Source: Escherichia coli (GTDB taxonomy: Bacteria > Pseudomonadota > Gammaproteobacteria > Enterobacterales > Enterobacteriaceae). Taken from it: 64,000 nt of DNA. The notes under the pieces were generated by a model. It was not told the origin of the DNA, did not search any database, and worked only from the letters and a program-made list of their open reading frames with translations. Both the position numbers and the translations under genes were made by a program. The stretch lies in the NCBI RefSeq assembly GCF_044324875.1, contig NZ_CP172185.1. The stretch is one strand, 5' to 3'. Positions within the stretch are counted from its first letter, which is position 1. Each line of letters starts with the position of its first letter. Positions 35,427-35,702 of the stretch are shown here, one piece after another.

Positions 35427-35442
35427 ATCAGCCTCCTTTTGC

Positions 35443-35690
35443 TTAATTAGATATATCTAATTTATATCTGATATGAGCGCTCTTGCAAGTATAAAAATGA
35501 TTTTTAAACGTGAATGCACCTCACATCCAGGCCGGATAATACGTTCACGCCGCATCCGCCAGCCTTTCTACGACGTTGAATGTCTTCTCATACCTCAGAT
35601 ATATCAGTTCTACAAATCGCTTGCATTTATCATGATTAACAATCATTATCATTTACGAAATTTATTTAGATATATCTGATTAATATCACG
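35443..35690. promoter_or_regulatory. Divergent yqjI / yqjH control region: three AGATATATCT palindromes (candidate YqjI operators), a Fur box, and an embedded REP-like element
   Basis: TTAGATATATCTAA 35447-35460; CAGATATATCAG 35596-35607; TTAGATATATCTGA 35666-35679; Fur-box-like ATCATGATTAACAATCATTATCATT 35629-35653; REP-like 35527-35563. Confidence 0.6.
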
Positions 35691-35702
35691 AAGGCGATAA
35701 CA

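Follow-up and report, generated by a model that had tools for sequence, protein, structure and literature searches.

The closest described counterpart of the region studied here is the divergent yqjI–yqjH pair of Escherichia coli K-12, also called nfeR and nfeF (Wang et al., J Bacteriol 2011 193:563; 2014 196:3199). In this system NfeR/YqjI represses nfeF/yqjH and nickel relieves the repression (PMC7981267, citing Wang 2011 and 2014; stated also in PMC9508795), nickel stress induces nfeR (PMC9508795), and according to the title of the 2011 paper yqjH is under the control of Fur and YqjI (J Bacteriol 193:563). In Klebsiella, deletion of nfeR raised nfeF expression 85-fold, and nfeR affects virulence in an insect model (PMC7981267). 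The system ties nickel stress to iron assimilation. Its regulator shares with other PadR-family repressors (B. subtilis PadR, LmrR and the cadmium-binding Rv3488) the winged-helix domain, a palindromic operator and the autoregulation of a divergent or adjacent gene. YqjI differs from these proteins in having a His/Cys-rich extension at its N-terminus and a longer C-terminal part, and its subfamily has an operator of its own, GATATATC flanked by TTT and AAA. The 2014 study of Wang and colleagues is said to have mapped by footprinting a site I and an extended site II, both of which were reportedly required for full repression of either promoter; internal deletions reportedly disturb regulation, and the REP element located between the sites is said to matter for the regulation of yqjH. 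A literature search pairing REP with YqjI returned nothing. The comparative conservation and spacing data presented below are consistent with this account of the 2014 work.

The locus analysed here belongs to a 64-kb stretch of DNA (the window) from a non-K-12 E. coli, in which aer, yqjI/nfeR (minus strand), a 276-nt spacer, yqjH/nfeF (plus strand), a tRNA gene, mug and rpoD follow one another (Table 1). We put at about 90% the probability that the spacer is the divergent nfeR–nfeF control region known from K-12, with the NfeR sites and the Fur box arranged as modelled below. The preliminary description had called the two genes yqjI and yqjH, and these names were right. Indeed, YqjI is 99.5% identical to K-12 NfeR over 207 aa (tblastn) and shares with it the neighbourhood aer–nfeR–nfeF–tRNA–mug, as befits an orthologue; it carries a PadR winged helix at residues 67–136 (Pfam PF03551, 56.6 bits against a cut-off of 27), and YqjH carries the FAD_binding_9 (124.9 bits) and SIP (90.4 bits) domains. 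The RefSeq annotation of the K-12 locus agrees with the nfeR/nfeF identities, and the spacer is 100% identical to that of E. coli O158:H23 CFIAFB20140388, whose flanking genes RefSeq names nfeR and nfeF. No NfeR- or NfeF-specific model scored above cut-off in NCBIfam, and the search for a YqjI structure in the PDB gave distant PadR proteins only, the best of these weak matches having an E-value of 6e-9 over residues 61–140. The locus matches that of K-12 in its genes, in their order and in their divergent arrangement; no base differs from K-12 in site II, site I, the Fur box or the −35, and both strains have a REP in the middle of the spacer. K-12 differs from the window strain in its longer spacer haplotype, in the core of its middle palindrome copy (GACATATC against a perfect core here) and in having an intact REP followed by a degenerate second one, of the Z type. 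The system being already published, what we add is modest, namely a constraint on spacing, an allele dimorphism and a wide conservation of the operator.

The N-terminus of YqjI had been described as extraordinarily rich in His and Cys, and the translation, which begins with MSHHHEGCCKHEGQPRHEGCCKGEKSEHEHCGHGHQHEHGQCC, bears this out. This putative metal-binding extension differs strongly among genera (loci L003–L034): it consists of long HHEGCC-type repeats in Citrobacter and of His, Glu and Gly without Cys in Raoultella, and it is nearly missing in most Enterobacter (MRHEHEGGGRR…). The RFFGHGELRLVILD…PSPGVIYPTL region, encoded 3′ of the variable N-terminus, is kept in all the genera compared.

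Table 1. Coordinates in the window of the genes and of the observed and predicted elements of the yqjI–yqjH region.
Feature	Coordinates	Strand	Basis
aer	33177–34697	+	ORF listing
yqjI / nfeR CDS, 207 aa, PadR-family repressor	34803–35426	−	ORF, translation
YqjI His/Cys-rich extension, putatively metal-binding, residues 1 to ~55	35262–35426	−	translation
Candidate operator site II, core palindrome TTAGATATATCTAA, perfect over 14 bp	35447–35460		sequence, conservation
Site II second repeat TTTATATCTGATA, 11 nt after the first	35461–35473		direct-repeat structure
yqjI −10, probable, TATAAA	35461–35466	−	position inside site II second repeat
yqjI −35, probable, TTGCAA, 16-nt spacer to TATAAA	35483–35488	−	conserved GCAA core
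AT-rich conserved block …AAAAATGATTTTTAAAC… upstream of yqjI −35	35491–35513		predicted function
Single decayed Y-type REP CCAGGCCGGATAATACGTTCACGCCGCATCCGCCAGC	35527–35563	−	similarity to consensus and to window copies
Middle copy CAGATATATCAG, perfect 8-bp core GATATATC	35596–35607		sequence
yqjH −35, probable, TTGCAT	35621–35626	+	CTTG invariant in 19 spacers
Fur box ATCATGATTAACAATCATTATCATT, overlapping probable yqjH −10	35629–35653		conservation; title of Wang 2011
yqjH −10, probable, CATTAT, 17 nt after −35	35644–35649	+	conserved layout
Candidate operator site I TTAGATATATCTGA (35666–35679), then degenerate second repeat TTAATATC	35666–35687		sequence, conservation
yqjH / nfeF CDS, 254 aa, NADPH-dependent ferric-siderophore reductase, SIP (siderophore-interacting protein) family	35703–36467	+	ORF, Pfam, RefSeq

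Three copies of one palindrome, all proposed as YqjI operators in the preliminary description, were indeed found at 35447–35460, 35596–35607 and 35666–35679. The proposal is supported for the outer two, which are conserved palindromes, and not in the same way for the middle one, which lacks the full AGATATATCT, is polymorphic and is only a half-site in other genera. The copies are not randomly distributed: the 64 kb contain four copies of GATATATC where 0.61 would be expected, three of the four lie within the 276-nt spacer, and the fourth, at 36840 inside mug, has no operator flanks. When the spacer was shuffled 20,000 times with its dinucleotide composition kept, three copies never occurred and two copies occurred in 10 shuffles. 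Both outer copies contain the full AGATATATCT, site I departs by one mismatch from the 14-bp palindrome of site II, and the two sites form part of a 26-nt direct repeat of 88% identity. The core of site II, which probably covers the transcription start of yqjI, is placed 21–34 nt before the start codon, and the second repeat of the site reads GATATAAA on the yqjI strand, with TATAAA inside it. Site I follows the yqjH −10 and, counted from the predicted start, occupies roughly +13 to +20.

The promoter hexamers of Table 1 were assigned from conservation and are weak, because a simple sigma-70 scan called no promoter in the spacer; a terminator scan of the spacer likewise gave nothing above threshold. 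For yqjH, TTGCAT matches three of six consensus positions and CATTAT four of six. The AT-rich block upstream of the yqjI −35, which is 78% complementary to an arm of the Fur box and whose TGATTTT is also found in other long-spacer genera, could act as a UP-like element or represent a second, weak Fur-like sequence. Two inverted repeats were seen in the same region. A perfect 11-nt one, GCTCATATCAG / CTGATATGAGC (35421–35431 / 35468–35478), encloses both site II and the start codon of yqjI; it was rejected as a conserved structure, its arms showing no co-variation in E. albertii or O157. Another, perfect over 10 nt (35407–35416 / 35685–35694), places ATCACGAAGG in the H-H-E-G codons of yqjI and in the ribosome-binding region of yqjH. 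A 68-aa ORF (35473–35679) that spans the REP and operators was treated as spurious.

We then compared orthologous spacers chosen by protein similarity and not by motif. The scan took one genome per species and gave 32 loci, 31 of which retain the divergent yqjH, from Escherichia, Citrobacter, Enterobacter, Lelliottia, Superficieibacter and Raoultella. A lack of conservation in such spacers had been named beforehand as the result that would speak against the operators, and both the outer palindromes and the Fur box came through this check. Indeed, the outer palindromes are invariant in the 31 spacers while their flanks vary freely. Beside yqjI, all 16 protein-selected spacers compared, from the six genera, have GATATATCTAA, and 15 of them have TATATC 2 nt after it, although the conservation of this second repeat could stem from its −10 role rather than from a contact with the repressor. 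Beside yqjH, TTT(A/C)GATATATC is invariant across the orthologous spacers, a TTTaGATATATC core occupies the position of site I in all 41 spacer clusters, and CTTG(CA), 17 nt before CATTAT, is also invariant (CTTG in 19 spacers). Neither site I nor site II varies among the 12 aligned alleles. For the outer two sites we thus found what an NfeR operator would be expected to be, a conserved promoter-proximal palindrome linked to the regulator gene across taxa.

A wider view came from a metagenome scan for TNGATATATCTAANNTNTATC, which gave 120 loci. As these loci were chosen by the motif, the informative observation is not the invariance of the motif; it is its adjacency to the regulator gene. A YqjI homologue adjoins the motif in 54 of the 120 loci. 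Fifteen of the 54 homologues show only 35–46% identity and lie on contigs of 56–72% GC, in which an AT-only motif is no chance match. In 11 of these 15 distant loci, 24–44 nt separate the core from the likely start codon downstream of it, and CTTGCAT or CTTGAC often precedes the core; several loci carry two or three copies of the operator (the range being one to three, with L047, L051, L096 and L161 among the loci concerned). The neighbours of the distant homologues are diverse. In L047 the regulator gene is followed by a SIP gene in the same direction and faces a TonB-dependent receptor gene; L047 and L161 have in common a divergent DUF6249 gene, downstream of which an ECF sigma factor gene is found in L161.

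In the case of the Fur box, the sequence proposed at 35629–35653 is present and ends 50 nt before the yqjH ATG at 35703, close to the distance first given. A Fur motif scan did find it, with 14 of 19 positions of the consensus GATAATGATAATCATTATC and only its right half near-perfect, but the match is not exceptional: the window contains seven matches of 14/19 (in four distinct places, overlapping and both-strand registers being counted apart) against about one expected. The sequence alone therefore does not single out this box, and its conservation does. Indeed, AATCATTATCATT is invariant in 19 spacers from the six genera and lies 17 nt after the conserved CTTGCA. Fur-repressed iron-acquisition promoters likewise have an AT-rich Fur box over the −10 and serve genes for iron-assimilation enzymes; the yqjH promoter differs from them by its 14/19 match and by sharing its control with a second metal-responsive repressor. 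In the same crude scan a near-palindrome elsewhere in the window, GATGATCATCATCATTGTTATC (63132–63153), scored equal to the yqjH box. It lies 8 nt upstream of an ORF for a 271-aa membrane protein (62309–63124, minus strand), which by its appearance may be a zinc transporter of the ZupT type in the ZIP family.

The distance between the cores of site II and site I was found to fall into narrow classes of 96–97, 166, 171–175, 181–185, 217–219 and 230 nt. Twenty-two clusters with less than 90% mutual identity hold 181–185 nt between the cores, and the identity of their middle segments is 62%, compared with 59% for shuffled segments. Because this length is kept while the identity of the middle is about that of shuffled sequence, it is the length of the spacer that appears constrained and not its sequence. 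Between the two common E. coli alleles the difference is 11 nt. A Rayleigh test peaked near 11.0 bp, with R = 0.79 for the 41 related clusters and R = 0.65 (P ~0.05) for eight collapsed classes, so that an 11-bp periodicity of the spacing classes is suggestive only and loses its robustness when lineages are collapsed. Helical phasing at 10.5 bp gave no signal (R 0.23–0.50).

The palindrome described as REP-like in the middle of the spacer (35527–35563) is a real REP, though a decayed one in the window strain. It is intergenic, forms an imperfect palindrome and has further copies within the window. It shows 5/34 mismatches to the Y-type consensus and 3/37 to the window copy at 20968–21004; both the K-12 spacer copy and the window copy at 48929–48962 match this consensus exactly. 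Its predicted hairpin reaches −5.3 kcal/mol (z −1.3), against −12.2 kcal/mol (z −3.5) for the K-12 copy. The comparison across strains that had been suggested shows that the element does vary: it is decayed here, intact in K-12, split by IS1397 in IAI39 and absent from the orthologous spacers examined outside Escherichia. Two spacer haplotypes are common in E. coli, of 276 nt (window strain) and 287 nt (K-12). In a spread sample of 5,422 E. coli genomes, matches of at least 90.9% identity correspond to 276–277 nt and those of at most 85.4% to 287 nt; judged from these identity bands, roughly 1,690 genomes (~31% of complete E. coli) would have the short form and roughly 3,732 the long one. E. 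albertii and Escherichia sp. E1V33 have the short haplotype. The two forms differ to the right of the REP (35556–35600 against 1630–1690 of the K-12-type locus L001) by a stretch of about 50 nt that does not align and by an 11-nt indel. A degenerate Z-type REP makes up this stretch in K-12 (P < 0.0005), but in the allele of the window strain such a second REP was not significant (P = 0.11). Compared with the REP/BIME elements of E. coli, the copy of the window strain has lost much of its stem, and only the K-12-type allele resembles a two-REP BIME.

In strain IAI39 (L035, 1–1460) the IS3-family element IS1397 is inserted inside the spacer REP, in its central TTCAC loop, with the junctions …GGCGTTCAC–IS–TCACGCCG…, also written …GGCGTTCAC–IS1397–TCACGCCGCATCC…. 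IS1397 is a REP-specific insertion sequence that prefers the loops of these elements, and the IAI39 insertion fits this preference. With this insertion, about 1.4 kb come to lie between the nfeF promoter on one side and site II with nfeR on the other. The comparison thus adds to the known system a late REP that is confined to Escherichia and is now decaying or disrupted in some strains, together with two haplotypes that differ at the third palindrome. These natural variants of the spacer are concrete material for testing the published idea that the NfeR sites communicate.

The regulatory scenario that we propose is as follows. NfeR, a PadR-type winged-helix repressor with a His/Cys-rich tail predicted to bind metal, would bind the palindrome TTTAGATATATCTAA at two places. 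At site II (35447–35473) it would overlap the −10 and the start of yqjI and repress its own gene; at site I, just downstream of the yqjH −10, it would block the RNA polymerase. Fur–Fe2+ would bind 35629–35653, over the yqjH −10. With the Fur box in this position and NfeR at site I, full expression of yqjH would therefore need both low iron and the release of NfeR by nickel. The two operators may cooperate across a spacer that is constrained in length and free in sequence, an arrangement that would fit a looped or wrapped repression complex. Escherichia would have gained its REP in the variable middle of this spacer, and the middle copy of GATATATC would take the place of an older half-site immediately before the yqjH −35 and be an auxiliary site at best. 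We infer the exact promoter hexamers, the footprints, the looping and any role of the REP, in part from earlier work; the elements themselves, their non-random occurrence, their conservation, their spacing and their polymorphism are observations.

That the palindromes might not be NfeR operators at all, and would instead be AT-rich promoter elements or sites for another protein such as PepA, must be considered, as the repeats do hold −10-like sequences and as genomic SELEX with PepA, an aminopeptidase that binds DNA, gave a single peak in K-12, the nfeF/nfeR spacer being the only region bound (PMC8249747). We regard this as highly improbable. The palindrome accompanies YqjI homologues into GC-rich genomes with different neighbouring genes, a pattern better matched by an autoregulatory operator than by a PepA site, and the published regulatory logic gives the repression to NfeR. 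The status of the middle copy is another matter. It reads AGATATATCA, that is 9 of the 10 bases of AGATATATCT, is devoid of the TTT/AAA flanks and ends 15 nt upstream of the yqjH −35. One could imagine that it is a real third NfeR operator that helps site I and site II to come into contact by looping, and that strains with the perfect core and strains with GACATATC repress yqjH to different extents. The core is indeed perfect in E. albertii and Escherichia sp. E1V33 as well as in the window strain; outside Escherichia, most long-spacer genera have at the homologous position (C)TATATC or TATC followed by 5–8 A, 7–10 nt upstream of the −35; and promoters with several operators also occur with the distant homologues, an operator immediately preceding CTTGCAT in L047 and L051, for example. 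In the short spacer of Enterobacter, the homologous position is a third 11-nt-phased repeat of site II. Against this, the flanks of the middle copy match the operator consensus at only about two of eight positions, several Citrobacter keep only TATC, and the A-run may be a mere UP element. Moreover, unlike sites I and II, the middle core often varies in E. coli. K-12 and O157:H7 have GACATATC in this place, a divergent strain has GATGTTTC, and a 49-nt probe found a perfect core in ~2132 complete genomes, one mismatch in ~2493 (~46%) and no match in some 800, two mismatches occurring in some genomes. A third operator is in our opinion doubtful, and the middle copy rather appears to be an old half-site under weak constraint, which in some Escherichia has turned into a full core.

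For the REP, one reading is that of a selfish insertion with no sequence-specific regulatory role, whose effect, should it have one, would come from the added spacer length alone. Several observations agree with it. The spacers outside Escherichia, which have no REP, share the operators and the Fur block, and nfeF of Klebsiella is still repressed 85-fold by NfeR; the spacing in Escherichia is about that of the common 184-nt class plus one REP, the ~35 nt of the element bringing 184 nt to the 219 nt of the window strain; the window copy has lost more than half of the hairpin energy computed for K-12; and IAI39 tolerates 1.4 kb of IS1397 within the element. On the other hand, mutation of the REP reportedly impaired the regulation of yqjH by YqjI in K-12 in the work of Wang et al. 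from 2014, and the REP is kept as a part of the spacer in 5,421 of 5,426 E. coli genomes. We therefore find a purely selfish REP quite conceivable and would still give it somewhat less than even odds. A broader proposal would join these elements. In it the two operators and a helper half-site form a looped or wrapped complex that accepts only certain spacings (96–97, 171–175, 181–185, 217–219 and 230 nt), in steps of about one helical turn in vivo; the alleles, through their length (276 or 287 nt), their middle core and their REP, tune the coupling between nickel and iron; and the module of a His-rich PadR protein, GATATATC and a SIP reductase is far older and more widespread than its enterobacterial case. 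In this full form we consider the proposal speculative and rather unlikely to hold in all its parts, and our preferred reading stays that of two conserved NfeR operators and a Fur box.

Some features of the surroundings can be mentioned. A REP cluster lies at 34704–34790, between the convergent ends of aer and yqjI; it includes a Z-type REP (34731–34766) and gave a weak match to the Rfam family naRNA4, below the family threshold (E = 0.036). A scan of 34700–36700 with Rfam passed only the tRNA, with nothing in the spacer. This tRNA gene (36521–36596, minus strand) was called tRNA-Met with anticodon CAT by ARAGORN and tRNA-Ile by RefSeq, and is presumably the known case of ileX, in which the CAU anticodon is modified to lysidine.
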